From positions 20,785-84,784 of the forward strand of contig CACODD010000002.1 in assembly GCA_902625895.1 (NCBI GenBank): 64,000 bases of DNA, written 5' to 3'. The notes under the pieces were generated by a model. The model saw only the letters and a list, made by a program, of their open reading frames with translations, had not been told where the DNA came from and did not search any database. Position numbers and translations under genes: made by a program. Positions within the stretch are counted from its first letter, which is position 1, and each line of letters starts with the position of its first letter. The DNA comes from an uncultured Alphaproteobacteria bacterium (GTDB lineage: Bacteria > Pseudomonadota > Alphaproteobacteria > Methylaequorales > Methylaequoraceae). Shown here piece by piece: positions 5,278 through 33,821 of the stretch.

Positions 5278-6597
5278 CTACAACTTTTCCTCAACATCGA
5301 ACCCTCTAAAACATTTGAATCTTGGAAACCTTAAACTCCAGTGTTCACCATCCTGACTTTTACTAATAGAATCTGCCTTAATTTCTACAATTTGACCAAT
5401 TAATTTATTTCTATTTTTCCAAAAAGATTCTCTTTGTTCGTCTGAAAATCCAGAACCTATATTCAATCTAAAAAACTTATCATTGTCAACGCCTTCAGCT
5501 ATGATTGCTCCTAATTTACCTGCATTTCTTCCAGTTCCTTCTTCAAAATCTTTTACTTTAAGAGATATTTCTATGACCGGTTTTAATTTTAACCAGGTTG
5601 TAGATCTTTTGCATTCATAAAATGATTCTGGATCTTTTATCATAATACCTTCGTAACCTTGAACTATAGATTCATTGTTAAAACTTCTAAAAGCAGACAG
5701 GCCCTCAGGACAATCAAGATTAATAATTTTTTTTTTAATCAATTTAATTTTATCTGAATTCTTAATAAAACTATCATACCAATTTTTTAAATTTAAAGTT
5801 CTTAACTTATAGGATTTTTTGTAAACACCAACTTTGAATTTTTCAAATGGAAGAAAATCAAATAAAAATAGTGTAGCGTCTGGATTTTGAATAACTTCTT
5901 TTCTATGAATCTGTTTCATTAGCTCCTGAAAATTTTTGCTTACAACTTCTCCGTCAACTACTATTGCTTCTTCTAAGCGGTTAATACTAATTTTTTCTCT
6001 TAATTCTTCTTGTAAGTTATTAAAATTTGTTAATTCTTTTCCATTCCGACTGAACATGTCGACTTTTCCGTTTGGATATAAAACTGTAATTACTCGCACG
6101 CCATCTAACTTTACTTCAAGAATCTTTTCTCCAGTAAGTTTTTTCTGATGTAATTCTGAATCTTGTGCTAATTGACACGCAAAAACTGGAATTATATATT
6201 CATCAAAACCATTTTTTTTTGCTACATTGTTTATAGTTCTCTCTGAGAGCCCACATCTCATGTCTTTTTGTAAAATCCTTTTATAAAAAAAATTCCACTC
6301 ATCTTCGTGTGATTTCTCCATTTTTTCAAAAATTTCATCTCTTGCTGCATGACCAGTTAATTTTCTAGATAATAATTTGTCAGCTAATTGACTAAATTCT
6401 TCCCATGCTAAACCATCTCCGTCTGATTCAGATTTGGGAACTTTTTTAACACCGAAAGTTAAAAGTTTATTGTAAGCTAGGCTCATTCCATTAAAAAATA
6501 TCTGGTTGTTATTTTTCATTTCTTTAAGGATTATTTCTTCTTTTGATAACCGAGAATTTGTCGACTCAAGTTTTCTAATGATTTTAAAATTTTCCAT
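5278..6597 (-). CDS. ATP-dependent DNA ligase
   Basis: Adenylation motif I KxDGxR is present as EVKLDGVRVI at residue ~153. 439 aa with no signal peptide. Downstream nucleotidyltransferase/OB-like motifs (…EGIMIK…, …WLKLK…) are present. Confidence 0.75.
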   Translation of the reverse strand: MENFKIIRKLESTNSRLSKEEIILKEMKNNNQIFFNGMSLAYNKLLTFGVKKVPKSESDGDGLAWEEFSQLADKLLSRKLTGHAARDEIFEKMEKSHEDEWNFFYKRILQKDMRCGLSERTINNVAKKNGFDEYIIPVFACQLAQDSELHQKKLTGEKILEVKLDGVRVITVLYPNGKVDMFSRNGKELTNFNNLQEELREKISINRLEEAIVVDGEVVSKNFQELMKQIHRKEVIQNPDATLFLFDFLPFEKFKVGVYKKSYKLRTLNLKNWYDSFIKNSDKIKLIKKKIINLDCPEGLSAFRSFNNESIVQGYEGIMIKDPESFYECKRSTTWLKLKPVIEISLKVKDFEEGTGRNAGKLGAIIAEGVDNDKFFRLNIGSGFSDEQRESFWKNRNKLIGQIVEIKADSISKSQDGEHWSLRFPRFKCFRGFDVEEKL

Positions 6598-7324
6598 CTA
6601 ATATATTTTGAATACTTATTTGATATCTACAATATTTACAACTATTTTCACTGACTGGAACCTTATCATAATTTAAAGTTTGATATATTCTATCAAGAGT
6701 TGGTTCGATCCATGTTTGGTCAAGCTCCCTCTCGAAAATCAATAATTGAAAATCAATTATTTCTGATGAGTTTGGAATATCCTTAGAAGCATTTAAATAA
6801 ACAAGTATACCTGCTGAACCTACTTTCACTGAATTTTTTTTTAAAAGAAAAGAATATAAAGAGAGTTGTTTCCAGTAACCTGGCCAAATATTTTCTGAAC
6901 TAATATTTTTTTTACGTGATGTACTTTTAATAATAACTGGATAATTGTTTCCAGTTTCTTTACATAGCCAAATATCGTCAAGATTAGCTTTAATTTTTAA
7001 GTTTGTCTTTTTATCAATATAACTTATTCCTTTAAATGGATGTGTCCAGTTATCTAGTGATTCGTTGCTAATAGGAACTAATTTCTTATTTATGATTTTT
7101 GTTTCTGGTATAACTTTTTCTAGACTGCGATATTTATTCAAAGTATTTTTGAAATGACTTACAACAAAGTTATTGATAACCAAAGGTGTACCATGAGGTC
7201 TTTTTATGCCATGTTTTTGGTCTAAGTAAAAACATCTGTTACAATCGAAAAATAAATCAATTTTTGATCGATTTATTGCAAATGGTAAAAGATTATTTTT
7301 AATATATAATTTTTTTTTCCACAC
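6584..7324 (-). CDS. Putative PD-(D/E)XK nuclease with Cys cluster (Cas4/AddB-like Fe-S nuclease). Tentative.
   Basis: 246 aa. Cys pairs lie at the N-terminus (CNRC) and C-terminus (CKYCRYQ). A RecB-family QhxxY motif is present (WKQLSLYSF) and an acidic LDDIW segment precedes IIKST. Its 3' end overlaps the ligase start by 14 nt, on the same strand. Confidence 0.4.
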   Translation of the reverse strand: MWKKKLYIKNNLLPFAINRSKIDLFFDCNRCFYLDQKHGIKRPHGTPLVINNFVVSHFKNTLNKYRSLEKVIPETKIINKKLVPISNESLDNWTHPFKGISYIDKKTNLKIKANLDDIWLCKETGNNYPVIIKSTSRKKNISSENIWPGYWKQLSLYSFLLKKNSVKVGSAGILVYLNASKDIPNSSEIIDFQLLIFERELDQTWIEPTLDRIYQTLNYDKVPVSENSCKYCRYQISIQNILDGKF

Positions 7325-7479: not shown

Positions 7480-7854
7480 ATGTACTTATTATTTCTTTTC
7501 TTGATTCCAAAACTAGTTTTTTCACTTGAGCTCAATTTAGTATGTACTAATAATAACGCACTAACAAATGAAGTAGATGTAAAAGATATTTTTTTATTAT
7601 TGAACACCGACAATAAAAGAGTTGATTTAGGTGGTTTATCTTTTGAGGCTGATAATATTTTAGTAACAAAATCTAATATTTCATGGTTTTCTAAAAACAT
7701 CGAGCTTTATCCAGAGTCAAATGGATCTGTCTCAGGAATTCTAGGAAGATATTCAGGTGAGTTGGTACTTAATTTTAAACGTGAAGACAGTCAAAAAACG
7801 AATTCATTGATTTTTAATTGTAGGAAATTTGCTATTAAAGACAGAAAATTTTAA
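7480..7854 (+). CDS. Small secreted hypothetical protein
   Basis: 124 aa with an N-terminal signal-like segment (LLFLFLIPKLVFSLE). No known motif. Divergent from the minus-strand nuclease/ligase genes. Confidence 0.3.
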   Translation: MYLLFLFLIPKLVFSLELNLVCTNNNALTNEVDVKDIFLLLNTDNKRVDLGGLSFEADNILVTKSNISWFSKNIELYPESNGSVSGILGRYSGELVLNFKREDSQKTNSLIFNCRKFAIKDRKF

Positions 7855-8831
7855 TTTGCAAATATCTTTTCTTTCTCTATGAATTTAGTTAATAATCTTA
7901 CATGAAAAGTTTGTTGAAATTCATCATTTTTATGATCTAACTTTGGAAACATTCTTTTTACATTCTCAAATTGTATTAAATAATTTTCAGGTCTTACTTT
8001 TGAAATTTTTTTTAAATACCGATCGGGCATCCTAAACTTGCCTAGAGTAACCGAGTGAATTTTATTTTTGTCAATTAATTCAAAAACATTTTTAAAGAAT
8101 TCTTCATAGCCTCCTATTTGTTCACAGTAAATTAATGGATCGAATCTTAAGCCAATTGACCAGCCTAAATTTTGTAGTTTGATTATTGCTTTTAATCTTT
8201 TTGTAAGACTTGGTGTTTTATCTTCAAATTCTTTTACCACATATTCAGGATTAAGACTAAAAGCAGGTATTACATTTGCCACTGGTTTAATTTTTTCAAA
8301 GACTTTAATATTTATACTTTTTGAACGTATTTCTAATACACCTTTTTTTATTCCTTCAAAATACTTTATGAATTCTTTAAGAAAGTTTGTAACATTTTCA
8401 AGTGCCAAACTGTCGGAGTCGTAACCTGAAAAAAAACATGAATATTCTTTATTGTTTTCAGCTATTTTTTTTATTTTAGAATAGAAATCTTCGTAATTTA
8501 CAAATAAAACATAATTGGCCGAGTTAAACATTCCCTGAAGAAAACAGTATTTACAATCATAAGGACAATTAAGGAGATGAGAAAAATAATAATTATTTTT
8601 AAATCCAATAGTAAACTTTTTAGGTGCTTTAAGTATAAAGTTTTTTTTTTTATATGCTAATATTAACGAAGGTGTTTTTTTTTGAATCCTAAAATTTTGG
8701 TTATTTGCATTAAAAACTTCAGAGTAGGAATTACAATATATAATATTTTTATATTTAATTCTTTTGATAATGTTATACGTATTGGGATGCGATTTTGCAG
8801 CATTTTCAATATATATTGTATCAATTTTCAT
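7851..8831 (-). CDS. splB: Radical SAM enzyme, spore photoproduct lyase-like (SplB family)
   Basis: A CX3CX2C radical SAM motif (CPYDCKYCFLQ) lies about 90 residues from the N-terminus, the position seen in SplB rather than the N-terminal position of most radical SAM enzymes. At 326 aa the length is similar to SplB. Confidence 0.6.
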   Translation of the reverse strand: MKIDTIYIENAAKSHPNTYNIIKRIKYKNIIYCNSYSEVFNANNQNFRIQKKTPSLILAYKKKNFILKAPKKFTIGFKNNYYFSHLLNCPYDCKYCFLQGMFNSANYVLFVNYEDFYSKIKKIAENNKEYSCFFSGYDSDSLALENVTNFLKEFIKYFEGIKKGVLEIRSKSINIKVFEKIKPVANVIPAFSLNPEYVVKEFEDKTPSLTKRLKAIIKLQNLGWSIGLRFDPLIYCEQIGGYEEFFKNVFELIDKNKIHSVTLGKFRMPDRYLKKISKVRPENYLIQFENVKRMFPKLDHKNDEFQQTFHVRLLTKFIEKEKIFAN

Positions 8832-9619
8832 ACCTTCAGAAATTCTTTAAGTTTTTTTATATTGTATTCTGCATTTTCGCTGAAATTAATCACATTATTA
8901 TGAAGAGAACAATACTTTGTAAAATATAAATTAAGGAGTGCTTTCATTTGTTCGCGTTCTGTAAATGTAAACTTTATTTTTGCAAACAAATTATTTAATT
9001 CATTTTCAACAATTTCTTTACTAGTCGGATAAAATTCCTTTTTTAAATTTAACATATATGAGCAAAGTTCATTTATTAACTTTTTTTGATTAGAAATAAT
9101 ATTGTATACAACTTCTTTATTTTTAAAATCAATAGATTCAAACTGATTGTCAGAGACAATTTTGACAATCTGTAAAAGTTCTTTTGAAGAGTATTTACAT
9201 GCTGATTGATAAAAACCAAATGATTCCATGTCATAAACTTTTGAGCTGTAACTTTTCTTTTGAATTCCTACAGATAAACATTCTTGATTTTGCATTTCTA
9301 ATTTATTTATAAAAGGAAAAAAAATCTTTTTGGTTTCATTGTCAGTAATTTTATTTATTGAACAAATATCTCCAACCTTTAAATATTTGTGCCCTGCTAA
9401 TCCAATATTTATCCATATATTATTATTTTTTTTATTATAATAGTAATATGTATCAGTTACTCCGATGGCAGCATTTACTTTACCGATACCTGAAATGGTT
9501 AAGCTGATGTTCTGATTTGCGTAAATAAAAATGTGTTTTAAATCTTTGATTTTTTTTAGCTTGAATAGATCAATTAGTGGTCTTGCTTCTGAGTTTGTCG
9601 CAACTATAAAATGAATCAT
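8828..9619 (-). CDS. MTA/SAH nucleosidase-family (PNP_UDP_1 phosphorylase fold) protein with a C-terminal extension
   Basis: ISGIGKVNAAIGVTD matches KSGIGKVAAALGAT of E. coli MTAN. INIGLAGHKYLKVGDI matches INTGSAGGL..LKVGDI. VYDMESFGF...VKIVSD matches AVEMEATA...VRAISD. About 85 extra C-terminal residues are present. ATGA overlap with splB. Confidence 0.5.
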   Translation of the reverse strand: MIHFIVATNSEARPLIDLFKLKKIKDLKHIFIYANQNISLTISGIGKVNAAIGVTDTYYYYNKKNNNIWINIGLAGHKYLKVGDICSINKITDNETKKIFFPFINKLEMQNQECLSVGIQKKSYSSKVYDMESFGFYQSACKYSSKELLQIVKIVSDNQFESIDFKNKEVVYNIISNQKKLINELCSYMLNLKKEFYPTSKEIVENELNNLFAKIKFTFTEREQMKALLNLYFTKYCSLHNNVINFSENAEYNIKKLKEFLKV

Positions 9620-10417
9620 TTATTTTTTAATGAATTTTAGAGTCATGCGATCACTTTCACCTATGTCTTCGTAAATAGATTTATTTTTATCACCTTCTGC
9701 ATACCTTGGAGGGAGAGTCCATACACCTTTGTTGTAATTTTTGAGATCTTTAGGGTTAGAATTAAGTTCATTTTTTTCTAATAACTTAAATCCCTGTTCT
9801 TCAATATGTCTTATCAAAAATGATTCTTTTACATAACCTTTTTTAAAATTAGATGTTGCAGATTCATCAGCTCTATGTTGGACAACTCCAAGTATTCCAT
9901 TTTTTTTTAGTGATCTATGAAATGATTGATAAATATTTTCTGATTTTTTTTGATCTAAAAAGTTATGTGTATTTCTAAATGTCAAAATTAAATCAAAATA
10001 ATTTTCATTACTTTTAATTTTAAAATCTTTATCGATAAAAATTTTTTTAATTTCTCCAAATTTATTTTTATTCTTTTGAAAATATTCAAAGAATTCATTC
10101 TGGATTTTTGTGATGATCTCAATCGCGTAACTTGGTTCTTTATAAACTGCAACATGGAAGTTATTTGTTCCTTTCATGTAGGTGCTAATTATCTCTGTAT
10201 ACCAACCTCTACCTGGAATTATCTCTAAAACTTTTTTTGATCTATCCAATCCAAAGAAATTTAGTGTTTCATAAGGGTTTCTATATACGTCCCTTTTTCT
10301 GTTTTCTTCCTTTCTGTGAGGATTCTCAACAGCCTCTCTAACTAAATCAGTGTTTGCGTCAATTTTGTTAAAAAATAACAATGTTGTTAAGATTAAAGAA
10401 TATAGTAAAACCCTCAT
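9620..10417 (-). CDS. Predicted secreted class I SAM-dependent methyltransferase
   Basis: Signal peptide (LLYSLILTTLLFFNKIDA). An EIIPGRGWYTEII segment resembles the MTase glycine-rich motif I. A GILGVVQHRA segment resembles the post-II region. Confidence 0.45.
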   Translation of the reverse strand: MRVLLYSLILTTLLFFNKIDANTDLVREAVENPHRKEENRKRDVYRNPYETLNFFGLDRSKKVLEIIPGRGWYTEIISTYMKGTNNFHVAVYKEPSYAIEIITKIQNEFFEYFQKNKNKFGEIKKIFIDKDFKIKSNENYFDLILTFRNTHNFLDQKKSENIYQSFHRSLKKNGILGVVQHRADESATSNFKKGYVKESFLIRHIEEQGFKLLEKNELNSNPKDLKNYNKGVWTLPPRYAEGDKNKSIYEDIGESDRMTLKFIKK

Positions 10418-10420
10418 AAT

Positions 10421-10918
10421 TTATGTTACACTATCTATCATATCGTCTATAGAAAATTGTTTATGTATTGCATCAGTAATTAAACCTAAATCTTTTTCAT
10501 TTTTAATATCCCAACCGCAAGGAGCTTTTTTTGTTAGCCCAGATCTGCATGAATACGAAAATACTTTAAAATCTTTTACTGCATCATGCGGAGAGTATTT
10601 TTTTTCAGAATCATTATCGTATGGATCTTTTTTAAAAATACCTTTTTCATTTGGCTTAACATTCATTATTATACTGTAAGTATAATGATTTAAAAGAAGA
10701 AAAGGATCTTTGGACTTTACTTCGCCTAAAAATTCAATGAATGCTACCGATGTTGCCTCTATATCATCTGGGGTAAGTTCATCGTAATATTTTGAAAAAA
10801 AAGATATAAATTTTCTTGCACTAATAAATAAAGCTACATCTCTTACTATATAATCATAAACAGTTTGAGAAATAATAATTTTAAATAACCAATCTGGACA
10901 AAATCTTTCTTTACCCAT
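10421..10918 (-). CDS. Hypothetical protein (165 aa)
   Basis: ORF within a tightly packed same-strand run. No recognisable motif. Confidence 0.3.
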   Translation of the reverse strand: MGKERFCPDWLFKIIISQTVYDYIVRDVALFISARKFISFFSKYYDELTPDDIEATSVAFIEFLGEVKSKDPFLLLNHYTYSIIMNVKPNEKGIFKKDPYDNDSEKKYSPHDAVKDFKVFSYSCRSGLTKKAPCGWDIKNEKDLGLITDAIHKQFSIDDMIDSVT

Positions 10919-10920
10919 TT

Positions 10921-11238
10921 TTAGCCTTTCTTCAAAAAATTTTCAGCATAAGATTTTTTTATCAACGACCTTTTATTCGGCATTTGTACTTCATAATCAT
11001 ATTTATTTTTTTTTGCAAAGTTGATAGCTGATTCTAAATCATCAAAAAATAACTTAATTTGTTTTTCAGGGTTTGAAGATCCGTTCCAACAAAACTTACT
11101 ACTTATAAATGATTCATTAATTTCAATGTTTGAGAGACACCATTTGCGTGAGTTATTATATCCCGACTGCATGGCAGACTTAGTGGGTTTAAAAATCAAA
11201 AATTTATTTTTTTTCATAGTTTTTAAATCCTCGCTCAA
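10921..11238 (-). CDS. Possible ETC complex I subunit-like (NDUFS4/AQDQ-family) small protein
   Basis: About 100 aa with an SAMQSG...W.....S.DP.. pattern reminiscent of the alphaproteobacterial 'ETC complex I subunit conserved region' proteins. Weak. The true start is probably the internal Met (MKKNKF). Confidence 0.3.
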   Translation of the reverse strand: MSEDLKTMKKNKFLIFKPTKSAMQSGYNNSRKWCLSNIEINESFISSKFCWNGSSNPEKQIKLFFDDLESAINFAKKNKYDYEVQMPNKRSLIKKSYAENFLKKG

Positions 11239-12376
11239 GATCTTTAATCAAATCATCTGCTGATTCTAAACCAATATGAATTCTAAACCAATATACAGAC
11301 TTTTTATAATTTTTTAAAGAGGGCTTTGTTACATTTAATGGTAAAATCAAACTTTCGTATCCTCCCCAACTAAATCCAATTTTAAAAAAATTTAAATGAT
11401 CAATGAACGATTCAATTTTATTTATTTTTGCAACTGAAAAAGTAATAAGTCCATTGCTAAGATTAAAGTATTTTTTCCAAAGTTTGTGGTAAATATTTTT
11501 TTTATCGGGTAAGAAATAAATTTCTTTAACAACCTTTTTTGTCTCTAAATACTCAAAAACTTTTAAGGAATTTTCTTGATGTTTTTCTAGTCTTGTACTC
11601 AGAGTTCTCATACCTTTTATTGCGTTGAAACATGCCTCCGCAGAAACAAAATCTCCCATTCTAACCGCTGTTTGCTTAATTTTTTTGAAATGCTCATTCC
11701 CGCATGCTATTACGCCACAAAAATTATCAGAATGACCTGAAAAATATTTTGTACAAGATTCAATAGCCACATCTATTCCCCATTTTAAAGGGTTGAGACC
11801 TATGAATGTAGCCCAAGTATTATCCATAACAGTTATAATTTTATTTTTTTTTGCAATCTTTACAATTTCCTCGATATCTTCCACTTCATAATTGAGAGAC
11901 CCAGGCGATTCGATGTAAATTAATTTTGTTTTGTTGCTAATTAGTTTATTAAAAGAAGAAGAGTTATTATTTTTGTAGAAATAAGTTTTTATTCCAAATT
12001 TTTTTAACTCTTTTATACAGAAATTATAAACCGGTTCATAACAATTTTCAGTAATTAATACTTCATCTCCTTTTGACAAAAATGATAATAAACTTATCGT
12101 TATTGCTGACAATCCAGAACTTGTAACAATTGCATCTTGACTTTTGTATAATTGGCAAATTAATTTTTCAAATCTTTTAACTGAATAGTTTCCAAATCTT
12201 CCATAATAAGGTTTCTTAAATCTATTTTTTTTAGCTTCTAAAAAGCTATTATAGTCTTTAAAAATTATTGTCGAGGTTCTATATATGGGATCACTTAAAG
12301 ATCCATGATGTAAATTAGGATCACTTCCTAGTTCAATTAATTCAGAATTTATTTTATTTTTCCCCATTCTGCCCAT
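11204..12376 (-). CDS. Cys/Met-metabolism PLP-dependent enzyme (cystathionine beta-lyase/gamma-lyase/gamma-synthase family)
   Basis: PLP-lysine motif SCTKYFSGHSD. Length 390 aa. Fold-type I features (…DNTWAT…). Confidence 0.8.
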   Translation of the reverse strand: MGRMGKNKINSELIELGSDPNLHHGSLSDPIYRTSTIIFKDYNSFLEAKKNRFKKPYYGRFGNYSVKRFEKLICQLYKSQDAIVTSSGLSAITISLLSFLSKGDEVLITENCYEPVYNFCIKELKKFGIKTYFYKNNNSSSFNKLISNKTKLIYIESPGSLNYEVEDIEEIVKIAKKNKIITVMDNTWATFIGLNPLKWGIDVAIESCTKYFSGHSDNFCGVIACGNEHFKKIKQTAVRMGDFVSAEACFNAIKGMRTLSTRLEKHQENSLKVFEYLETKKVVKEIYFLPDKKNIYHKLWKKYFNLSNGLITFSVAKINKIESFIDHLNFFKIGFSWGGYESLILPLNVTKPSLKNYKKSVYWFRIHIGLESADDLIKDLERGFKNYEKK

Positions 12377-13191
12377 GATCCATCATACAGTTTAACTTCT
12401 TTAATACCTAATAATGTAAGAACAAATATAATATTGCAAGCTGTAACTCCAGATCCGCAATAGCATACTATGGTATTTTTTTTTTTTATTTTGTTTTGAT
12501 TGAAAATTAAATGCTCTAACTCATCAAAATTCTTTATAAGCATATTGTCTGTTATTACCTCAAACGGAATATTAATACTATTCTTAATTCTACCTTTTTT
12601 TAAATTAGGTCGCGGTTCTTTTTCAATTCCCAAAAATCTGTTTTGAGGTCTTGCGTCAATTACCTTTGTATTACAATCATTTTTAACAATAATTTTTTCT
12701 AATTCTTTTTTATTCACTATCCTCTTAGATTCAAATGAATTACATCTAAAATTAGATTTTTCTGTTTTTTTTATTTTATTTGTTATTGGAAGATTATTTT
12801 TAGTCCACTCTGAAAAACCACCATTTAGTATTCTTATCTTTTTAAATCCAAAAACTTTAAAAATAAACCAAACTCTTCCTGAACAAAAAAAACCCACTTG
12901 ATCATATATTATTATTTCGTGATTAATATTAATTCCATTTATTATAATAAAATTTTGGATTTGTTCAGTTGATGGAAACATATGGGGTAATTTAATGGAA
13001 TTATCCGACAATTTCTCAATATCGAAATAGATTGCATTCTCAATATGAGAGTTTGTATACTCTAATCTTCCTCTATTGGGTTTATTTAAATACCATCTAC
13101 AATCAATAATTCTAATGTTACAAGAGTTTTTTAAAGTAAAAAGCTCCTCACAGTTAATCACAAATTTTGAAATTAAATTTATCAAAGCCAC
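12349..13191 (-). CDS. sseA: Tandem-rhodanese sulfurtransferase (3-mercaptopyruvate/thiosulfate sulfurtransferase, SseA-like)
   Basis: Two rhodanese domains. The active-site loop CYCGSGVTAC is of the MST type (C-G/R-S-G-V-T-A). Confidence 0.8.
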   Translation of the reverse strand: MALINLISKFVINCEELFTLKNSCNIRIIDCRWYLNKPNRGRLEYTNSHIENAIYFDIEKLSDNSIKLPHMFPSTEQIQNFIIINGININHEIIIYDQVGFFCSGRVWFIFKVFGFKKIRILNGGFSEWTKNNLPITNKIKKTEKSNFRCNSFESKRIVNKKELEKIIVKNDCNTKVIDARPQNRFLGIEKEPRPNLKKGRIKNSINIPFEVITDNMLIKNFDELEHLIFNQNKIKKKNTIVCYCGSGVTACNIIFVLTLLGIKEVKLYDGSWAEWGKIK

Positions 13192-14180
13192 CCTGGAATT
13201 GGAAGTTCTTTGTCTTTAAGAAATTTTTTATTAAAAATTTTACTTTCGTATTTTGTGCCATAATCACACAAGATGGTTACAATTTTTTTGTTGGGACCAA
13301 TTAATTTTCCTAACTTCACAGCTCCCATAATATTTATTCCTGATGATCCTCCTAAAATTAGCCCTTCTTTTCTCACCATTTCATATACAATATTTAAAGC
13401 TTCTGTATCTGTTATTTGAAATGATTCGTCAATAACAGCATTTTCTAAATTCCTGGTTATTCTTCCTTGCCCAATTCCTTCAGTTATGGAAGAACCAGTC
13501 GATTTAAGTTTCCCATTTTTATAAAAATTGTGCATAGCTGAACCCATGGGATCTGCTAAACCAATAACAATACTTTTATTTTTTTCTTTTAAAAAATCAG
13601 AAACACCAGAAATAGTTCCTCCTGTGCCTATTGAACATATAAAAGCGTCAACCTTTTGGGAAAGTTGTGTATATATTTCAGGGCCGGTTGTTAAATAATG
13701 TGATTTTTTATTAGATAAATTATCAAATTGATTTGCCCATAAAACACCATGCTCATTAACAATTGACTTTGCTAAGGTTTCTGAGTAACGAATGTAATTT
13801 CCAGGATTCTTATATGGGAGTGCATCAACAAGTTTTAATTCTGCTCCACACAATTTTAACATTTTTTTTTTTTCATTACTTTGGGTTCTAGGCATCACTA
13901 TGATTGAATTCAACCCAATTGAATTTCCAACTAAACATAGACCTATCCCCGTGTTTCCTGCAGTTCCTTCGACAATTGTACCTCCTTTTTCGATTTGTTT
14001 TTTTTTAATTGCATCTTTTATTATTTGCAATGCAGGTCTGTCTTTAACTGATCCACCTGGATTAAGAAATTCACATTTACCAAATATTTCGCAACCAGAA
14101 AGTTCTGATGCGACTTTTAGTTTTATTATTGGAGTGTTTCCAATACATTCTGAAAAATTTCTTTTAAAATTAAATTTCAT
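13182..14180 (-). CDS. cysK: Cysteine synthase / cystathionine beta-synthase family PLP enzyme (CysK-like, no CBS pair)
   Basis: PLP-lysine motif NPGGSVKDRPAL. Gly-rich GTGGT loop (SIGTGGTISG). 332 aa. Confidence 0.8.
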   Translation of the reverse strand: MKFNFKRNFSECIGNTPIIKLKVASELSGCEIFGKCEFLNPGGSVKDRPALQIIKDAIKKKQIEKGGTIVEGTAGNTGIGLCLVGNSIGLNSIIVMPRTQSNEKKKMLKLCGAELKLVDALPYKNPGNYIRYSETLAKSIVNEHGVLWANQFDNLSNKKSHYLTTGPEIYTQLSQKVDAFICSIGTGGTISGVSDFLKEKNKSIVIGLADPMGSAMHNFYKNGKLKSTGSSITEGIGQGRITRNLENAVIDESFQITDTEALNIVYEMVRKEGLILGGSSGINIMGAVKLGKLIGPNKKIVTILCDYGTKYESKIFNKKFLKDKELPIPGWL

Positions 14181-14262
14181 TTTTTAAATGATCTTAAACT
14201 TTTTTTTGTTAAATCATATACAAAAAGTTAACAATGGTTTAGTTTAAGAATTTCACAAAAAA

Positions 14263-15843: not shown

Positions 15844-16624
15844 AATTTTAGCTCTATTAATAAGATATAAGAACATATCTTTTGGATCTTTTCCCAGGTT
15901 GTTGAGTATTTTTTATTGGCCAACTGTTCAAATTCTTTTTTGGGGATTCTTTACTAATTTTTTTATGTCTAATGGAAGCTTTGGTATTTGGAGTACCCTA
16001 AACATAATTCTTTCTGCAGTTGTTTTATGGGACGTTTTATTCAGAGGACAACTTGGTTTGACCATGTCTTTTTTTGAGGAGTTATGGTCAAGAAATTTAC
16101 CAAATTTATTTATCACACCATTAAGAGATATTGAGATGGTTTATGGATTGATACTTATAAGTTTCTTAAGAACTTTAATTGGAATTACTCCCGCTGTATT
16201 TTTCGCAAACTATTTTTTCGATTTTCATCTATTTGAACTAGGTTTGTATTTAATATTTCTCTTTTTAAATCTAATAATTTTCGGATGGTCCATTGGTTTT
16301 ATTGTCTCTGGCTTAGTGTTAAGATATGGGCAAGCCTTTGAAGAATTAGCGTGGGCGATTATCTTTATTATTCTTCCGTTTTCATGTGTATATTATCCAT
16401 TAGGTTCCTTACCTAATATAGTACAAGATATAGCTCTTTTTTTACCAACAGTACATATTTTTGAGACTATGAGATTGATTTTGATCGAAAATAAGATTGT
16501 TCTACATAATGTTTTTATAATTATTTTTCTCAATCTATTTTATTTAATTTTAAGTATCTTATTTTTTTTAAAAATGATCTTTATTGCTAGAAAAAAAGGG
16601 CTTCTTTTTAATCAGGGAGAATAA
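15833..16624 (+). CDS. ABC-2 type transporter permease
   Basis: Six hydrophobic segments, about 260 aa. Start overlaps the ATPase stop. Confidence 0.7.
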   Translation: MINRILALLIRYKNISFGSFPRLLSIFYWPTVQILFWGFFTNFFMSNGSFGIWSTLNIILSAVVLWDVLFRGQLGLTMSFFEELWSRNLPNLFITPLRDIEMVYGLILISFLRTLIGITPAVFFANYFFDFHLFELGLYLIFLFLNLIIFGWSIGFIVSGLVLRYGQAFEELAWAIIFIILPFSCVYYPLGSLPNIVQDIALFLPTVHIFETMRLILIENKIVLHNVFIIIFLNLFYLILSILFFLKMIFIARKKGLLFNQGE

Positions 16625-17547
16625 GCGTCTATTTTATATCTTATTGCATCTTTAGTTGAATGTTTATAGATAAAAATACACGATTCCTTAATTATATTTA
16701 AATAATTCTTACTCCCTAAAAATAAACAAATTCGCAGAAAGTTCATCCTATTAAATTTAGTTTTTTTTTTTTCTCTTCTATACCATTTTTCGGATCTTCC
16801 TATTGATTTCTTACATGCAATTTTTAATATTGATTCTTTTAACTCATTTTTTTTTATAAAGTAATATAATGCAGCGTTATAGTCGTGTATAAGTTGAGTT
16901 TTTTTCCCAATCATAATCCTGTTTTCGTCATCTTTTGGTCCATATGATGTTATGTTATCAATAAAACAAAAATTCCCAAAACGAGCTAAATTTAAAACCA
17001 AAGAAAAATCCTCTATAAAAAGTTTTTTATTACATCCACCGGATTTTTGAATTGTTTTATTACAATAGAGATTAGGGGTTGTACCTGAAAAACTTGAAGT
17101 AATTGTAGCTTTAAGGGGGTTTTCCAAAAATCTAAAGTTTTCGATTGTATTTTTTTCAAACGAAATATTATTAAAACTTGGCAATAATTTGTATGAGCTA
17201 AAAGCTGCTACAGATTTTTTTTTTAAAATTGTTTTTAATAAAATTTCACAACAATATGGAGCCATAATATCGTCGCCACCAACTAATTTAATATAATCAC
17301 CTTTAGCTCTACTAATTCCATGTTGAGTTGCAATGGCTGGTCCACTGTTTTTCTGACTTAAAATTGTTGTATCTTTCCACTTTTGAGTTTTTTTTTTTAA
17401 ATATTCTAGTGACCCATCGGTAGATCCATCATCAATAAAAATATATTCTTTTTCAAAACTTCCTACTTGTTCTTTTATAGAAGAAAGTACAATTTTTAAA
17501 TATTTTTTTTTGTTAAATATTGGGCATACAAAACTTATTTTTGTCAT
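16612..17547 (-). CDS. Family 2 glycosyltransferase
   Basis: N-terminal FVCPIFNKKKYL...IFIDDGSTDGS (DXD-containing GT-A motif). Confidence 0.75.
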   Translation of the reverse strand: MTKISFVCPIFNKKKYLKIVLSSIKEQVGSFEKEYIFIDDGSTDGSLEYLKKKTQKWKDTTILSQKNSGPAIATQHGISRAKGDYIKLVGGDDIMAPYCCEILLKTILKKKSVAAFSSYKLLPSFNNISFEKNTIENFRFLENPLKATITSSFSGTTPNLYCNKTIQKSGGCNKKLFIEDFSLVLNLARFGNFCFIDNITSYGPKDDENRIMIGKKTQLIHDYNAALYYFIKKNELKESILKIACKKSIGRSEKWYRREKKKTKFNRMNFLRICLFLGSKNYLNIIKESCIFIYKHSTKDAIRYKIDAYSP

Positions 17548-17548
17548 T

Positions 17549-18550
17549 TTAGAATAGTTTTTCTTTCCACGTTTTCGGTGTTTTTGAATTTATAATTTCA
17601 AGATCAAGATGGTATCTAAACTTCTTAACACCTTTTTCTTTTATAAAATCAATCATCTTTTTTAAGCCACTATCTAATGTTGTTTTTGTTTTGTAATTTA
17701 GGAGTCTGCGTACCTTATCAGCACTGCAAGTTGCTTCCAAAACCTCTTGAGGTCTGCCCTTTATATATTTTGGGTTCAGATTAAATTTGAGTTGATTAGC
17801 AATTTTGTTGGCCAAAGTATTAATTGTTATAAATTCTTCATCCGGCCCTATATTAATTATCTGACTCTTTACAGACTTATTAGTGGCCATTTCTTTAAGA
17901 CAAAATAGGTCATCATCAATATATGAGAAACATCTTTTTTGTTCTCCGTCTCCGTATATATAAGGTTGTCTATTTTGTAACATTAAATTAATCATAATTG
18001 AAGCTACATTGCGGTATGGGTCGTCGTATTTTTGTCTCGGTCCAATTATGTTGTGTGGTACCGCAATGACGTATTCAACACCGTGAACTTCACATAAATT
18101 TTTTAGGATATTTTCTGCTGCTACCTTTGCTATACCATATGGATCTTGGGGAGCAGGGATGAGCTCCTCTCTGAACGGTATTTCATTAGTTCCATATCGA
18201 GCCATAGATGAGCAAAATATGATTCTTTTAACTTTATTTTCAATTGCTGCACTAAATAATGACACTGATCCAGTAACAATATTTTGCGTAATTAGATGAG
18301 GTGAGAAAACAGATAAACCCTCATATGCTGTTGCTGCTGTATGATATACTAAGTCACATCCTTTGGTAATTTTTAGCATTGAATTTCGAAAACAACAATC
18401 GTACTGATAAAACTCAGCATCGGGTGGAACATTATCCAATTCACCGCCAATTAAACTATCGCAGCCAACAACATGATGACCATCATTGATAAACGCGTCC
18501 GCCAAGTGACTTCCAAGAAAACCAGCAATTCCACTAATAAATATTTTCAT
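17549..18550 (-). CDS. NAD-dependent epimerase/dehydratase (short-chain dehydrogenase/reductase fold, UDP-sugar epimerase/decarboxylase-like)
   Basis: N-terminal GIAGFLGSHL Rossmann motif. Catalytic YxxxK (YGIAKVAAE). Confidence 0.8.
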   Translation of the reverse strand: MKIFISGIAGFLGSHLADAFINDGHHVVGCDSLIGGELDNVPPDAEFYQYDCCFRNSMLKITKGCDLVYHTAATAYEGLSVFSPHLITQNIVTGSVSLFSAAIENKVKRIIFCSSMARYGTNEIPFREELIPAPQDPYGIAKVAAENILKNLCEVHGVEYVIAVPHNIIGPRQKYDDPYRNVASIMINLMLQNRQPYIYGDGEQKRCFSYIDDDLFCLKEMATNKSVKSQIINIGPDEEFITINTLANKIANQLKFNLNPKYIKGRPQEVLEATCSADKVRRLLNYKTKTTLDSGLKKMIDFIKEKGVKKFRYHLDLEIINSKTPKTWKEKLF

Positions 18551-18556
18551 AAAAAA

Positions 18557-18632
18557 TGGCTCCGGCGACAGGACTCGAACCTGTGACCCAGCGATTAACA
18601 GTCGCTTGCTCTACCAACTGAGCTACGCCGGA
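18557..18632 (-). tRNA. tRNA-Asn (anticodon GTT)
   Basis: Reverse complement TCCGGCGTAGCTCAGTTGGTAGAGCAAGCGACTGTTAATCGCT...GGTTCGAGTCC...CGCCGGAGCCA. The cloverleaf closes, with anticodon loop CTGTTAA and an encoded CCA. Confidence 0.85.
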
Positions 18633-18684
18633 ATTATGGATATAATAGTTAAATTTTTTTAATTGTAAAACATTTATAAAAACT

Positions 18685-18758
18685 TGGAGGTGCGGACCGG
18701 ATTCGAACCGGTGTACACGGCTTTGCAGGCCGGTGCGTAGCCTCTCCGCCACCGCACC
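18685..18758 (-). tRNA. tRNA-Cys (anticodon GCA)
   Basis: Reverse complement GGTGCGGTGGCGGAGAGGCTACGCACCGGCCTGCAAAGCCG...CCGGTTCGAATCCGG...CCGCACCTCCA. Discriminator U73 is typical of tRNA-Cys. Confidence 0.85.
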
Positions 18759-18833: not shown

Positions 18834-19508
18834 ATGAATAGTAATTTTTTTGATAAAGCACGAGCTAATATGGTAAATAATCAACTCCTTCCCAATGGTG
18901 TTAAAAATCTAGATCTGATCGAATCATTTGATAATACAAAGAAAGAACTATTTGTTCCAGACTCTGAAAAAGAGATGGTATACAGTGACTCAGATATTTT
19001 GATTTCTCCAGATAGATATTTAATAAGAACATTTGTCTTAGCAAAAATGTTTGAGCACTGTAGTTTTTCTAAAGATGATTCAGTTTTAGTGATTGGTTGC
19101 TTAACAGGTTATTCCGTCGCGATAATTTCAAATTTAGTAAGTTATGTATTTGGTGTTGAAAATTGTAAAAGTTTAGTTGAAAGGGCTAATTCTGTTTTAT
19201 CACATATGGGATGTTTAAATACTTCAGTTTTCTATAAATCAAATCTAGTTTTAGGTAATAATAAAAACTCTCCTTATGATAAGATTTTTATTGAGGGTGC
19301 TGTAAAATCAGTTCCAAAAGTTTTAATTAAACAATTGAAAGATAATGGTGAAATCTACACGGTTCTAAAAGAAGAAGATTATATTGGTGAATTTGTTAGA
19401 GGTCAGAAAATTGATTCTTTAATCTCATTTACCAAACTTTTCAATACAAATTTATACGAATTGAAAGATTTCATTATCCAGGAAAATGGATATGAAAAAA
19501 GTCTTTAA
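18834..19508 (+). CDS. Protein-L-isoaspartate O-methyltransferase-family (PCMT-like) protein, the TolC-linked paralog
   Basis: An R..MV..QL...GV segment followed by ...FVP... and SAM-binding VLVIGCLTGYSVAI. Positioned upstream of tolC as in many alphaproteobacteria. Confidence 0.55.
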   Translation: MNSNFFDKARANMVNNQLLPNGVKNLDLIESFDNTKKELFVPDSEKEMVYSDSDILISPDRYLIRTFVLAKMFEHCSFSKDDSVLVIGCLTGYSVAIISNLVSYVFGVENCKSLVERANSVLSHMGCLNTSVFYKSNLVLGNNKNSPYDKIFIEGAVKSVPKVLIKQLKDNGEIYTVLKEEDYIGEFVRGQKIDSLISFTKLFNTNLYELKDFIIQENGYEKSL

Positions 19509-20856
19509 AAAGTTTTGTTTAATTTTCTTGATTATATTTCCTCAATACTCTTCATCTAATCAGATAGTCAATGACGATCTTAAACAATCACTTGAAAAAC
19601 TTTATGAGTTAAACCCAAAAATCAAGTATTATAGAAATATTTTGAAGTCAAAAGATGAATTAATGCCTCAAGCATATTCTGAATTTAGACCAGAAATAAA
19701 AGGTTATTATCAAAAAGGAAAGGTGCATACAAACTCTCACGGATTCAATATCACATCTGATGGAATAAGATCTGAAACTAACAAAGGAATTACCATAACA
19801 CAGGATATTTTTGATGGAGGAAGTAGCTTAAGTAATATACAGGTTGCTAAAAATACTATTTTTTCAGAAAGATATATTCTACAAGATAAAGAACAAGAAA
19901 TTTTCTTCGATGCAATAAAAATTTATTCAGAATTTGCAACCGAACAGTCTAATTTTAAGTTAAAAAAAAAAAATGTTGAAGTCCTTAAAAATAGATTTGA
20001 ATTAACAAAAGAACAATTTGAAATTGGAGAGGTTACTCTGACAGATGTTTCAATAGCTGACGCAAGATTATCATTGGCCAAATCGGATTTAATAGAATCA
20101 GAAAAAAATTTAGAATCCTTAACTGCTAATTATTTTTATTTATTTGGTGTTAAACCAATTTCTCCCAAAATTGATCTAGCTGTTCTTGAATTCAAAAAAA
20201 ATGTTGACGATATAAGGTCCTTAGGACTTAAAAAAAATCCGAAAGTTAATGACTTAGTTTACCAAATTAAATCACTTGAATACAAAATTAAGACTCTTAA
20301 AAGAAAAAAACTTCCAAGTGTTAAACTAGAAGCAGACGCATACATAAATGAGGGTTACTTCAGAACTGACAGTAAAAGAGAGGTTCTCTCTGCTTTTGCC
20401 ATTATTGATATACCCTTATATCAGTCTGGTGCAGCTTCTTCCAAAATCAGAGAAGTAAAAAGTCAGCTATTTGCCTTGAATCAATTATTGCGACAAGTTA
20501 AAGAGGAAATTGAATTTAATATTACATCATCTATATCATCATACGATCATTCATATTCAAAAATTAAAGCATATAAAAAACAAATTGAATCAAACAAGAT
20601 CTATTTGGAGGGTTTGAGGCAAGAAATGCAACTTGGTGAACGAACAATGCTTGATTTACTTGACGGAGAACAAGAATTATTAAAATCACAGCTTGATCTT
20701 GTAAAGTCTTACCGAGATCTATTTAATTCTTATTATGAAACGATCTTCTTCATGGGTGGTCTAAATCCCAGAGATTTAGGATTAAATGTAAATTATTATG
20801 ACGAAACGACAAATTTTGACGATGTCAAATTTAAGTGGTTGGATATAATTGAATAA
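19486..20856 (+). CDS. tolC: TolC-family outer membrane efflux protein
   Basis: Signal peptide. Two internally repeated coiled-coil/beta halves. 456 aa. Conserved pcm-like-tolC-valS neighbourhood. Confidence 0.75.
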   Translation: MDMKKVFKKFCLIFLIIFPQYSSSNQIVNDDLKQSLEKLYELNPKIKYYRNILKSKDELMPQAYSEFRPEIKGYYQKGKVHTNSHGFNITSDGIRSETNKGITITQDIFDGGSSLSNIQVAKNTIFSERYILQDKEQEIFFDAIKIYSEFATEQSNFKLKKKNVEVLKNRFELTKEQFEIGEVTLTDVSIADARLSLAKSDLIESEKNLESLTANYFYLFGVKPISPKIDLAVLEFKKNVDDIRSLGLKKNPKVNDLVYQIKSLEYKIKTLKRKKLPSVKLEADAYINEGYFRTDSKREVLSAFAIIDIPLYQSGAASSKIREVKSQLFALNQLLRQVKEEIEFNITSSISSYDHSYSKIKAYKKQIESNKIYLEGLRQEMQLGERTMLDLLDGEQELLKSQLDLVKSYRDLFNSYYETIFFMGGLNPRDLGLNVNYYDETTNFDDVKFKWLDIIE

Positions 20857-20858
20857 TA

Positions 20859-23465: not shown

Positions 23466-24238
23466 TGTTTGAAATAAAATTTGATAATCTTATTTTAAAG
23501 TCTAATAAAAACAAAATCATTAATAATAATATTATTTTTCTTTTTTACGGGATAGGTTGTTGTTCAGATGATTTTAAATTTTTATTCAATACACTAGGTC
23601 CTAGATTTAATCTCTATATTGTAGAACTTCCAGGGCACAACGGTATTAAATATTCTGATAGTGATTTGTATTCATTCTCAAGAAAGATTTATCTTTTTTT
23701 AAAAAAAAAAAACATTAAGGAAATTACATTTTTTGCTCACTCTTTGGGTGGTATAATCCCAATAATTTTAGTAAAAAACTTTATAAAAAACAAAATACTA
23801 ATTAGTAACTTTATAAACTATGAGGGAAACTTGACTAAATATGATACAGAGACTTTAACAAAAAAAACTATTTCTTACAGGAAAAATGATTTTATAAGAA
23901 ACAAATTTAACAATTTATTAAAAAAAACTGAATCGTCTCAAAATAGGTTTTTAAGTTATTGGTCTCAATCATTAAAAAAAACTTCACCTTCTATTTTTTA
24001 TGATTTATCAAAGCAATGTGTTAAATTAAGCGAATCGAATGAACTATTAAATTTTTTTAAAACGTTTTTTAAAAAAAAAGTTTATATTTATGGTGAGAAG
24101 ACTCAATTAAAGGTTTCAAAATATATTTTTGGTCCAGTCCGATACAAAATAAAAAATTCTGGTCATTTCTCTTTTTTTGAAAGTAAATTAGATTTTAGTA
24201 GAATATTTAGAAAATTATTATTAAAAAAATATAAATGA
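23462..24238 (+). CDS. Alpha/beta-hydrolase fold protein
   Basis: Nucleophile elbow FFAHSLGG. HGxxG-like oxyanion region. C-terminal GHF. Confidence 0.5.
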
Positions 24239-25956
24239 ATAAAATTAAAAAACAACATCTTCCCAGTCGACATGTTTCTGTGGGTCCTAAAAGCTCGCCT
24301 CATAGATCTTATTATTATGCAATGGGAATGACTGAGAAAGAAATATATCAACCTTTTGTTGGTATTGCGACATGTTGGAATGAATCTGCACCATGTAATA
24401 TTTCTCTTTCTCGTCAAGCTCAATCAGCAAAGAAAGGTGTCAAAGATAATACCGGAACTCCCAGAGAGTTTACTACAATTACAGTTACTGATGGAATAGC
24501 GATGGGGCATGAAGGAATGAAATCATCATTGGTATCGAGAGAAATTATAGCAGATTCAATTGAGGTTTCTATGAGAGGACATTGTTATGATGGATTGGTT
24601 GGAATTGCAGGGTGTGATAAATCTTTACCTGGCATAATGATGGCGATGTTGAGGTTAAATGTTCCTGCTGTATTTTTATACGGTGGTTCGATTCTTCCGG
24701 GTAAACACAAAAACAAAGAGGTTACTGTCCAGGATGTGTTTGAAGCAGTTGGTGAATTTGATTCAAATAAGATCACCGAGGATGAGCTTTGTGATTTAGA
24801 AAAAGTTGCATGCCCATCAGCAGGTTCTTGCGGAGGGCAATTTACTGCAAACACAATGGCCTGTGTTGCTGAAGCAATTGGATTAGCATTGCCTGGTTCT
24901 TCTTCAACACCAGCTCCGTACGAGTCCAGAGATAAATTTGCATATGACTCTGGAATCAAGGTAATGGATCTTATCAATACGCAACTCAAACCTAGGGATA
25001 TTGTAAATAAAAAATCTCTGATCAATGCTGCAAGAATCGTTGCGTGTTCTGGTGGTTCAACAAATGCAGCTTTACATCTACCCGCATTAGCTAATGAAAT
25101 AGGAATAGACTTTGATATAATGGATGTTGCAAAAATTTTCAAAGAAACTCCATATATAGCTGACTTGAAACCTGGAGGAAAATATCTTGCAAAAGATCTT
25201 CATGATATTGGAGGAGTTCCAATTATAATGAAATCTTTATTGGATGGAGGTTTTCTAGATGGTTCGTGTCTAACAGTAACAGGTAAGACTTTAAAAGAAA
25301 ATTTAAGTTCTGTAAAGGTTGACTTTGGCTCTCAAAAAATCATTTTTTCTACTAAGAATCCTATCTCTAAAACCGGTGGAGTTGTCGGTTTGCAGGGAAA
25401 CCTAGCGCCTGATGGTGCAATTGTTAAGGTTGCAGGGTTAAAATCTCAAAAATTTGTTGGAAAAGCTAGATGTTTTGATTGTGAAGAGAGTGCTTTTGAT
25501 GCTGTAAGTAACAAACAGTATGAAGCTGGTGATGTAATAGTTATAAGGTATGAAGGACCAAAAGGGGGCCCAGGTATGAGAGAAATGCTTGCTACAACTG
25601 CCGCAATATATGGACAAGGGATGGGAGAAAAAGTTGCCTTAATTACAGATGGAAGATTTTCCGGCGCAACAAGAGGTTTATGTGTTGGTCATATAAGCCC
25701 GGAAGCTATGGCATTAGGTCCAATTGCTCTTATCAAGAATGGGGATCAAATATTAATTGATGCTAAAGAGGGAATAATAACTCTAAAGGTTGATGAAAAG
25801 ATATTAGAAGCCAGAAAAAAATCAATTCAAAAAAGAAAAAATAATTTTGGATCGGGTGCTTTATGGAAATTTTCTCAAACAGTCGGATCTGCAAGATTTG
25901 GCGCAGTAACTCATCCCGGTGCAAAAAAAGAAATAAAGAATTATTCAGACATCTAA
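24235..25956 (+). CDS. ilvD: Dihydroxy-acid dehydratase
   Basis: CDKSLPG and SGGSTNA motifs. Fe-S cysteines. 573 aa. Confidence 0.95.
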
Positions 25957-29938: not shown

Positions 29939-29939
29939 A

Positions 29940-33817: not shown

Positions 33818-33821
33818 AATT

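Follow-up and report, generated by a model that had tools for sequence, protein, structure and literature searches.

An eight-gene run in a SAR11-like genome read as three adjoining units, among them a CysK2-rhodanese-MetC module and a nucleosidase-radical SAM pair

We analysed a stretch of 64,000 nucleotides from an uncultured alphaproteobacterium (contig CACODD010000002.1; hereafter the window), in which eight minus-strand genes follow one another with overlaps or gaps of at most 3 nt. The genes are called g1 to g8 from position 14180 downward, the longest open reading frame (ORF) being taken each time, and all eight agree exactly in their coordinates with a preliminary description of this DNA. 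That description had read the run as one operon for salvaging sulfur from methionine and S-adenosylmethionine (SAM) into cysteine. Judging from family assignments and gene neighbourhoods, we consider it probable (about 70%) that the run is a side-by-side placement of three independent units in a streamlined Pelagibacterales genome and not one pathway. The first unit (g1-g3) would be an old alphaproteobacterial sulfur amino-acid operon, in which family membership and linkage are observed and the substrates and direction of flux are our interpretation. The second (g4-g6) would bring together a protein resembling NDUFS4, an orphan confined to the lineage and an exported protein of methyltransferase fold, with no relation to sulfur detected. 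The third (g7-g8) would be the two-gene core of a widespread cassette of GT2 (family-2 glycosyltransferase), nucleosidase, radical SAM and SDR (short-chain dehydrogenase) genes, in which the radical SAM enzyme resembles spore photoproduct lyase (SPL).

The evidence that carries this reading comes from the company these genes keep outside SAR11. Taking the solved structure closest to g1, the Brucellaceae-type CysK2, as the seed of a genome scan, we reached 80 non-SAR11 loci (Hyphomicrobiales/Rhizobiales, Rhodobacterales, Rhodospirillales and others) and searched them by tblastn with all eight window proteins. Of the non-SAR11 alphaproteobacterial loci, 74 were evaluable, and in 39 of these cysK2 had a same-strand rhodanese gene of the 3-mercaptopyruvate sulfurtransferase (3-MST) type downstream of it; g4-g8 had zero matches in the 80 loci. 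One gammaproteobacterial-type contig (L090/L091) carries, in this order, genes for a GT2, a 279-aa homologue of g7 (E = 4e-24), an SPL-like protein and an SDR. A metagenome scan led by this protein gave 80 further loci (L093-L172). In 59 of 60 evaluable non-SAR11 loci of this kind, the g7-like gene was immediately followed by an SPL-like gene; GT2 lay upstream in 57 of 62, and SDR downstream in 34 of 49. In the 80 g7-like loci, no homologue of g1 or g3-g6 was found, and the sole match to g2 was a 27% identical rhodanese on the opposite strand. In these 80 loci, g1-g6 stand apart from g7-g8 except for that one match. On the evidence as a whole, the eight-gene salvage operon is largely refuted. 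What survives of the proposed run of sulfur enzymes is g1-g3 as a conserved sulfur module; in the 80 non-SAR11 cysK2 loci, the part of it made up of g4-g8 was never near cysK2.

The CysK2-type, rhodanese and MetC-type genes

g1 is a pyridoxal phosphate (PLP) fold-II enzyme with a PALP domain. Among the NCBIfam models, it passed only PRK10717 'cysteine synthase A' (494.9 bits, cutoff 387), and it remained below the cutoffs of the cystathionine beta-synthase (CBS) model (271 bits, cutoff 510) and of canonical cysK (265 bits, cutoff 351). Its translation contains SVKDR, TAGNTGIGL and GTGGT, and so has the PLP lysine and phosphate loop required of the PRK10717 type. Its best solved relatives in PDB are 5jis, 5i7w and 5jjc, each named 'cysteine synthase' (about 404 bits), and chains of O-acetylserine sulfhydrylase (OASS) and CBS score about 190 bits. 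The Brucellaceae-type structure sequence is about 57% identical to g1, and proteins from Brucellaceae loci are 90-91% identical to the 5jis/5i7w/5jjc chain. The likeness to Brucella CysK2 extends to the common PRK10717 assignment and to the neighbourhood, as in Brucellaceae, too, a 3-MST-type rhodanese gene is found downstream of cysK2. According to the genetic evidence of a B. ovis preprint, CysK2 and CysK1 are redundant with each other in a step downstream of CysE; the preprint cites a B. abortus study in which CysK2 formed no complex with CysE (bioRxiv 10.1101/2020.12.22.424080). By family, g1 is of the CysK2 type; the CysK/CBS-like label of the preliminary description holds for the PRK10717 type of cysteine synthase, and a CBS identity is only a possibility.

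The g2 protein is of the 3-MST (SseA) type. It scored 212.1 bits on the 3-MST model PRK11493, under the equivalog cutoff of 250, and its homologue at the Brucellaceae locus L008 passes that cutoff with 287 bits. The active-site loop of g2 reads CGSGVT, with the cysteine at residue 245, and we take a CG[ST]GVT loop in the second domain to be typical of 3-mercaptopyruvate sulfurtransferases.

For g3, a member of the Cys_Met_Meta_PP family, five of the top six models were beta-lyases, with TIGR01324 the best (316.6 bits, under its equivalog cutoff of 365.9). The third-ranked model was an archaeal alanine/glutamate racemase (296 bits), and the gamma-lyase and gamma-synthase models reached at most 205 bits. 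In PDB, E. coli MetC (1cl1) is its best solved relative with 237 bits, as against 141-164 bits for chains of cystathionine gamma-lyase (CGL). The catalytic and substrate residues Y56, R58, Y111, D185, K210, S339, W340 and R372 of MetC are kept. Unlike E. coli MetC, g3 scores below the equivalog cutoff, lies in an operon with cysK2 and sseA, and is substituted at five positions (F55Y, R59F, D116N, Y238V and Y338F). Ordinary MetC proteins of alphaproteobacteria are variable at positions 59, 116, 238 and 338 as well, so these substitutions say little for an altered specificity. Positions 55 (Tyr) and 338 (Phe) are both aromatic in g3, and we take both to be acidic in CGL and in cystathionine gamma-synthase (CGS). 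The syntenic orthologue of g3 in the Rhodospirillales locus L072 passes the MetC cutoff with 477 bits. By its model scores, g3 groups with the beta-lyases and not with the gamma-lyases. This speaks against the reverse transsulfuration by a CBS-like and CGL-like pair that had been proposed, since the better scores on the beta-lyase side and the kept S339-W340 place g3 with MetC, a placement which the preliminary description had itself listed as counting against its route.

The full order cysK2-rhodanese-metC was found in Rhodospirillales L072 and L073 (Defluviicoccus vanus) and, in looser form, in L081; in L072, the rhodanese and metC genes overlap by 4 nt. cysK2 and the rhodanese gene are adjacent in Parvibaculum, Zavarzinia and others, and the Rhodobacterales loci have cysK2 alone. 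These findings indicate that g1-g3 is a genuine sulfur amino-acid module, also outside SAR11. In this module, g1 may make cysteine from O-acetylserine and sulfide or sulfane sulfur, g2 may carry or deliver persulfide or sulfane sulfur, and g3 would act as a beta-lyase, converting cystathionine to homocysteine or cleaving cysteine or cystine at the beta-carbon; in the reading that we prefer, it would connect both cysteine and cystathionine with homocysteine. The Rhizobiales arrangement differs from the g1 locus in having no metC after the rhodanese and in an AlaXM-like gene for an alanyl-tRNA editing domain, which stands between cysK2 and the 3-MST rhodanese at L008 (11008-11757) and at about 30 other Rhizobiales loci among L008-L041. 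At L008, this gene and cysK2 share 4 nt at the cysK2 stop codon.

SAR11 bacteria are among the most abundant in the ocean and depend on reduced organic sulfur. They grow on methionine or dimethylsulfoniopropionate (DMSP) as sole sulfur source, are reported to have AhcY, CysE and CysK, and are reported to lack metE and metH. With AhcY reported, a route to homocysteine through MTAN and LuxS is unnecessary. Sulfide 'reassembly' from methanethiol has a precedent in Ruegeria. The genes annotated as cysK and metC in SAR11 were reported not to be induced by sulfur limitation; they may be genes other than g1 and g3. The 'cysK' of the SAR11 literature is SAR11_0789 of HTCC1062, and the genes reported around it, namely SAR11_0788 (an 'unknown protein') and SAR11_0791 (a 'ring-cleaving dioxygenase'), are unlike this window. 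It is the sole cysK entry in the SAR11 expression and locus-tag supplementary tables, where metC, sseA and splB are not listed. SAR11_0789 may thus be a paralogue of g1, in which case SAR11 would possess a pair of CysK-type genes, and the expression data in the literature might not be about g1.

The nucleosidase-like and radical SAM genes

The g7 sequence fell below all equivalog cutoffs for MTAN and futalosine hydrolase (20-29 bits versus 74-169). We searched its AlphaFold2 (AF2) model (pLDDT 90) with Foldseek and found that the top 50 matches were all MTA/SAH nucleosidases, futalosine hydrolases or chlamydial CT263, with E down to 9e-13 and a probability of 1.00. Across 32 members of the family, and in a nine-sequence alignment with distant members, residues E11, M131-E132 and S156-D157 do not vary. 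We take these to be the counterparts of what we understand to be the catalytic sites of E. coli MTAN (E12, M173-E174 and S196-D197), a correspondence by motif position and not by structural superposition. By this modelled fold and these invariant residues, g7 looks like an active nucleosidase. Its extra C-terminal domain had no sequence match in PDB and no Pfam family, and a plasmid collection searched for g7-like genes returned one weak, irrelevant match.

The g8 protein matches the SPL family PF20903 (80.6 bits), and lies far below TIGR04070 (89.9 bits, cutoff 400) and TIGR03886 (36.9 bits, cutoff 437). Its radical SAM motif CX3CX2C reads CPYDCKYC (residues 89-96). It resembles SplB (Geobacillus 4fhc; TIGR04070) in its PF20903 membership, in this motif and in the tyrosine just before the third cysteine. 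It differs from SplB in its TIGR04070 score, in its occurrence in non-spore-formers and in its linkage to nucleosidase, GT2 and SDR genes. A further difference is the tyrosine of g8 where alignment with 4k9r places the cysteine that we take to be the H-atom donor of SPL (C140/C141). Judged by these scores and residues, g8 is not an orthologue of the true spore photoproduct lyase. Its homologues number 4552, with about 52% identity in metagenome-assembled genomes (MAGs) of Methylococcaceae. A LexA-regulated splB has been predicted in alpha- and beta-proteobacteria; our literature search found nothing on SPL-like genes in SAR11 and no described function for a cassette of nucleosidase and SPL-like genes.

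The conserved adjacency described above marks g7-g8 as a true functional pair that belongs to another system, and SAR11 retains only the two middle genes of the GT2-nucleosidase-SPL-like-SDR cassette. A GT2 gene (16612-17547) and an epimerase gene (17549-18550) of the window were considered as displaced cassette partners and rejected: they showed only generic similarity in the GT2 N-terminus and no SDR similarity. In another locus, L001, a 66-aa ORF (10813-11013) stands where its close relative L175 has an SPL-like gene (9597-10592), which suggests that the gene was lost recently or that the assembly is faulty there.

Known pairs of a radical SAM enzyme with a nucleosidase are HpnH/HpnG, which act on the hopanoid side chain, and MqnE/MqnB of the futalosine pathway. 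The window pair is like these in that a radical SAM gene stands beside a gene of the MTAN superfamily, and is unlike them in the SPL-like nature of g8, in the unmatched C-terminal domain of g7 and in the usual partners GT2 and SDR, and it belongs to neither of them. By this likeness, g7 might strip off the adenine of 5'-deoxyadenosine or of an adenosylated g8 product. The theme of SAM by-products in the preliminary description thus keeps its footing in a radical SAM gene next to an adenosyl-nucleosidase fold, but loses its cytoplasmic source of S-adenosylhomocysteine (SAH), g6 being exported. More tentatively, and with the odds against it, g7-g8 could be the minimal core of an undescribed, widespread pathway, in which an SPL-like radical SAM enzyme and a dedicated MTAN-fold nucleosidase, usually with GT2 and SDR, would use a 5'-deoxyadenosyl intermediate to make or mend some product. 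As a separate point of the same standing, SAR11 could have its missing step of cysteine formation in the CysK2-SseA-MetC triad. If it is true that SAR11 keeps the core of such a pathway, an important housekeeping role would be implied.

Middle genes, gene packing and rival explanations

The small g4 protein matches the NDUS4 family with 81.4 bits (cutoff 31.9). Its orthologues in SAR11 are shorter (97-100 aa), which makes a start at the ATG of position 11217 more probable; g3 and g4 would then overlap by 14 nt and not by 35. g4 was absent from all 160 non-SAR11 loci around cysK2 or g7-like genes. For g5, we found no Pfam or NCBIfam match; its 50 homologues are each at least 52% identical and so far come from Pelagibacterales-like sequences only. 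They share the invariant motifs FCPxWL, CRSGLT..AP.GW and FSIDDMIDS and the invariant cysteines C7 and C124. The AF2 model of g5 is helical (pLDDT 82), and had no match among PDB folds at E<=0.001. An apparent NDUS4-g5 fusion (P0223) was rejected as Rosetta-stone evidence; its contig, L092, is a polished assembly of error-prone long reads with several fragmented genes.

On its own, the g6 protein gave only sub-threshold methyltransferase matches. Its family is large, with 2340 representatives of clusters found at E<=1e-3. Among 31 members sampled, 18 match Methyltransf_12, and the family profile matches the SAM-dependent methyltransferase 3dh0 at 3.6e-6. All 31 have an N-terminal hydrophobic signal-like segment, followed in several by a lipobox-like LxGC. 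The family has a class I methyltransferase fold, and the earlier call of a secreted methyltransferase holds in this sense. SAM is not expected outside the cytoplasm, and with an exported family, g6 is implausible as a cytoplasmic source of SAH. The 90%-identity cluster holding g6 includes members of 659-669 aa (representative, 669 aa), which could point to fusion with an adjacent gene or to an artefact of gene calling. For g4-g6, no link to sulfur was detected, and among the loci examined they stand beside the triad only in SAR11. The family calls of the preliminary description hold throughout the run, by Pfam and NCBIfam scores, by the family profile for g6 and by the model fold for g7.

The host looks SAR11-like, as had been considered: the window is AT-rich (GC 25-30% in most 2-kb blocks), its coding share is about 92%, and about 20 kb of it are syntenic with marine contigs from TARA and with MAGs that carry the label Alphaproteobacteria or Rickettsiales. 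The successive gaps from g1 to g8 are -10, -28, -35, +2, +3, 0 and -4 nt, of which some overlaps are upper bounds owing to the choice of the longest ORF; the range of -35 to +3 nt given earlier is right for longest ORFs, and its extreme value is probably too large. Across the window, same-strand neighbours have a median gap of -1 nt (37 pairs), and 70% of the 30 same-strand pairs outside the run have gaps no larger than 3 nt. Further tight runs of four to six genes are present elsewhere in the window, and those in Table 1 join unrelated genes. Because overlap is the norm here and unrelated genes overlap likewise, the spacing of g1-g8 does not imply a shared function, and the tightness that had been taken as a sign of one pathway loses that meaning. 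A sequence scan found no terminator-like site on the minus strand within the run. Promoter-like sites in the run numbered 63, versus 64.2 +/- 7.8 in shuffled sequences; the promoter scan is uninformative in this AT-rich DNA, as the observed sites match the shuffled expectation. On these scans, co-transcription of g1-g8 is plausible and would by itself be no sign of a common pathway. An Rfam search upstream of g1 found no family and no SAM riboswitch, at the gathering threshold or at E<=1.

Conservation within the clade was also considered. All eight genes are kept in marine contigs whose g7 homologues are 37-44% identical, and the same contigs keep about 20 kb of unrelated flanks, with epimerase, GT2, ABC transporter, Cas4-like nuclease, DNA ligase, MMPL and DXS genes. 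In the Sargasso Sea, 96% of SAR11 fragments have their genes in the same order as the genome of HTCC1062 (PMC2217521). As synteny extends over unrelated flanks and SAR11 gene order is conserved overall, in-clade conservation of the run cannot tell an operon from background. In streamlined genomes, overlap and within-clade synteny would thus carry almost no functional information.

Some observations weigh against three independent units, and most of them favour the single salvage operon. In that operon, the methyltransferase would yield SAH, the MTAN-like and radical SAM proteins would process adenosyl by-products, the CBS-like and CGL-like enzymes would transsulfurate, and the rhodanese would handle persulfide. 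The gene content parallels the methionine-to-cysteine operons yrrT-mtnN-mccA-mccB-yrhC of B. subtilis and ubiG-mccB-mccA of C. acetobutylicum (PMC2566862), in that one same-strand cluster holds a methyltransferase fold, an MTAN fold, a CysK/CBS-like enzyme and a Cys_Met_Meta_PP enzyme. As in those bacteria, the host must convert methionine sulfur to cysteine: SAR11 grows on methionine as its only sulfur source, and its route from methionine or DMSP sulfur to cysteine is described as unclear. The eight-gene order is intact in every Pelagibacterales locus seen, even at the lowest g7 identities, and the scan of the window found no terminator-like site inside the run. Moreover, the PRK10717-type g1 scores alike on the CBS and cysK/OASS models, which makes CBS-type chemistry possible, and the role of the SseA-type protein beside CysK2 is read from gene linkage. 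Even so, we regard the salvage operon as very improbable. Unlike the mcc operons, the run has a lyase of the MetC (beta) type and not of the MccB (gamma) type, its methyltransferase-fold protein is exported, and its MTAN-fold protein is divergent and tied to a radical SAM gene, not to SAH recycling. It also has no S-box, T-box or SAM riboswitch upstream of g1, has three unrelated genes interspersed, of which g4 and g5 are likewise without a sulfur link, and consists of parts that separate completely in other lineages. Outside SAR11, g7-g8 go with GT2 and SDR and never with cys or met genes, and the triad is never beside g4-g8. The reported AhcY, the genome-wide tight spacing, and the reported lack of induction of SAR11-annotated cysK and metC by sulfur limitation, whose match to g1 and g3 is unconfirmed, point the same way. 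The eight-gene run cannot stand as the SAR11 cysteine route, and a tempting false lead is thereby removed. The candidates are narrowed to the CysK2-SseA-MetC module, common to SAR11 and at least two Rhodospirillales loci and found in part in Rhizobiales and other alphaproteobacteria.

Two other accounts concern this module by itself, and we hold both to be unlikely. In the first, the triad alone would turn homocysteine into cysteine, with g1 as an O-acetylserine- or serine-dependent CBS, and with g3 having acquired gamma-cleavage or passing a persulfide intermediate to the rhodanese. It draws on the nearly equal CBS and CysK scores of g1 and on the SAR11 changes of g3 near the distal substrate end (R59F/I, D116N, Y238V and Y338F). 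The SAR11 route to cystathionine and cysteine is, besides, an acknowledged gap. However, g3 keeps S339-W340 and is aromatic at 55 and 338, where we presume CGL and CGS to be acidic, and the positions that changed vary in ordinary alphaproteobacterial MetC as well. The triad also occurs outside SAR11 without a reported dependence on reduced sulfur, and a CBS combined with a beta-lyase would merely cycle homocysteine. CysK2 does share sequence features with the O-acetylserine-dependent CBS of H. pylori (bioRxiv 10.1101/2020.12.22.424080). The second account makes the triad catabolic: sulfur would be taken from cysteine in the form of H2S or of sulfane sulfur, to serve cofactors or signalling or to detoxify cysteine, through beta-replacement by a CBS/CysK-type enzyme releasing H2S, a MetC-type beta-lyase acting on cysteine or cystine, and 3-MST acting on 3-mercaptopyruvate. 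The three classical types of H2S-producing enzymes are CBS, CSE/CBL-like enzymes and 3-MST; the families of the triad match them, and several orders of alphaproteobacteria have these families joined in one operon. But the genetics of the Brucella CysK2 relative point to cysteine synthesis, constitutive destruction of cysteine is unexpected in an organism dependent on scarce reduced sulfur, and there is no linked cysteine aminotransferase. The picture that remains under the three-unit placement is an ordinary, dense SAR11-type stretch with a sulfur module of a known kind and a conserved two-gene module, with the triad and g7-g8 as modest leads.

Table 1. Coordinates of the run, of its borders and of the loci and gene runs compared with it (window positions unless a locus is named)
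Feature	Position	Strand	Size	Remarks
g1, CysK2-type PLP fold-II enzyme, PALP domain	13182-14180	-	332 aa	first gene of run and triad
g2, tandem rhodanese, 3-MST (SseA) type	12349-13191	-	280 aa	two rhodanese domains
g3, MetC-type cystathionine / C-S beta-lyase, Cys_Met_Meta_PP family	11204-12376	-	390 aa
g4, NDUFS4-like small protein (PF04800)	10921-11238	-	105 aa	size as longest ORF
g5, orphan all-helical protein	10421-10918	-	165 aa
g6, exported protein, class I methyltransferase fold	9620-10417	-	265 aa	signal-peptide or lipoprotein-like
g7, MTAN-fold nucleosidase-like protein	8828-9619	-	263 aa	extra C-terminal helical domain of about 100 aa
g8, SPL-like (COG1533-type) radical SAM enzyme	7851-8831	-	326 aa	last gene of run
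Divergent intergenic region between g1 and plus-strand gene at 14263	14181-14262		82 nt	sole non-coding stretch available for a run promoter
Convergent ORF closing the run	7480-7854	+	124 aa	overlaps g8 stop codon by 4 nt
Window counterpart of the cassette	7851-9619
Cassette example, L090	4296-7713
Cassette example, L175	6630-10592			with PTP-like insert
Tight run of unrelated genes	18834-25956			PCMT, TolC-like, ValRS, unknown protein, IlvD
Tight run of unrelated genes	27087-32702			HD phosphohydrolase, ArgRS, unknown protein, NagZ-like, ScpA, ScpB
Tight run of unrelated genes	33095-36605			TatC, SerRS, PCMT, M23 peptidase

Features around the run

The convergent ORF at the end of the run separates it from a minus-strand gene pair (5278-7324), and SAR11 loci L002-L007 and L173 have an opposite-strand gene of 123-141 aa at the same place. 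The pair encodes a PD-(D/E)XK or Cas4-like protein (246 aa, with a C-terminal CxxC) and an ATP-dependent DNA ligase (439 aa), which overlap by 14 nt. Every SAR11 locus seen has this pair just past the SPL-like gene, and a small DNA-repair neighbourhood may be formed in this way.

On the other side, genes for tRNA-Asn(GTT) and tRNA-Cys(GCA) lie on the minus strand at 18557-18758, about 4.4 kb upstream of g1. The GT2/epimerase pair and a plus-strand block of NHL-like and ABC-transporter genes stand between them and g1, and we take the position of tRNA-Cys as coincidental. The window also holds two plus-strand paralogues of the PCMT family (protein-L-isoaspartate O-methyltransferase), at 18834-19508 and 35083-35730, the former being far more divergent than the latter (87 versus 204 bits).

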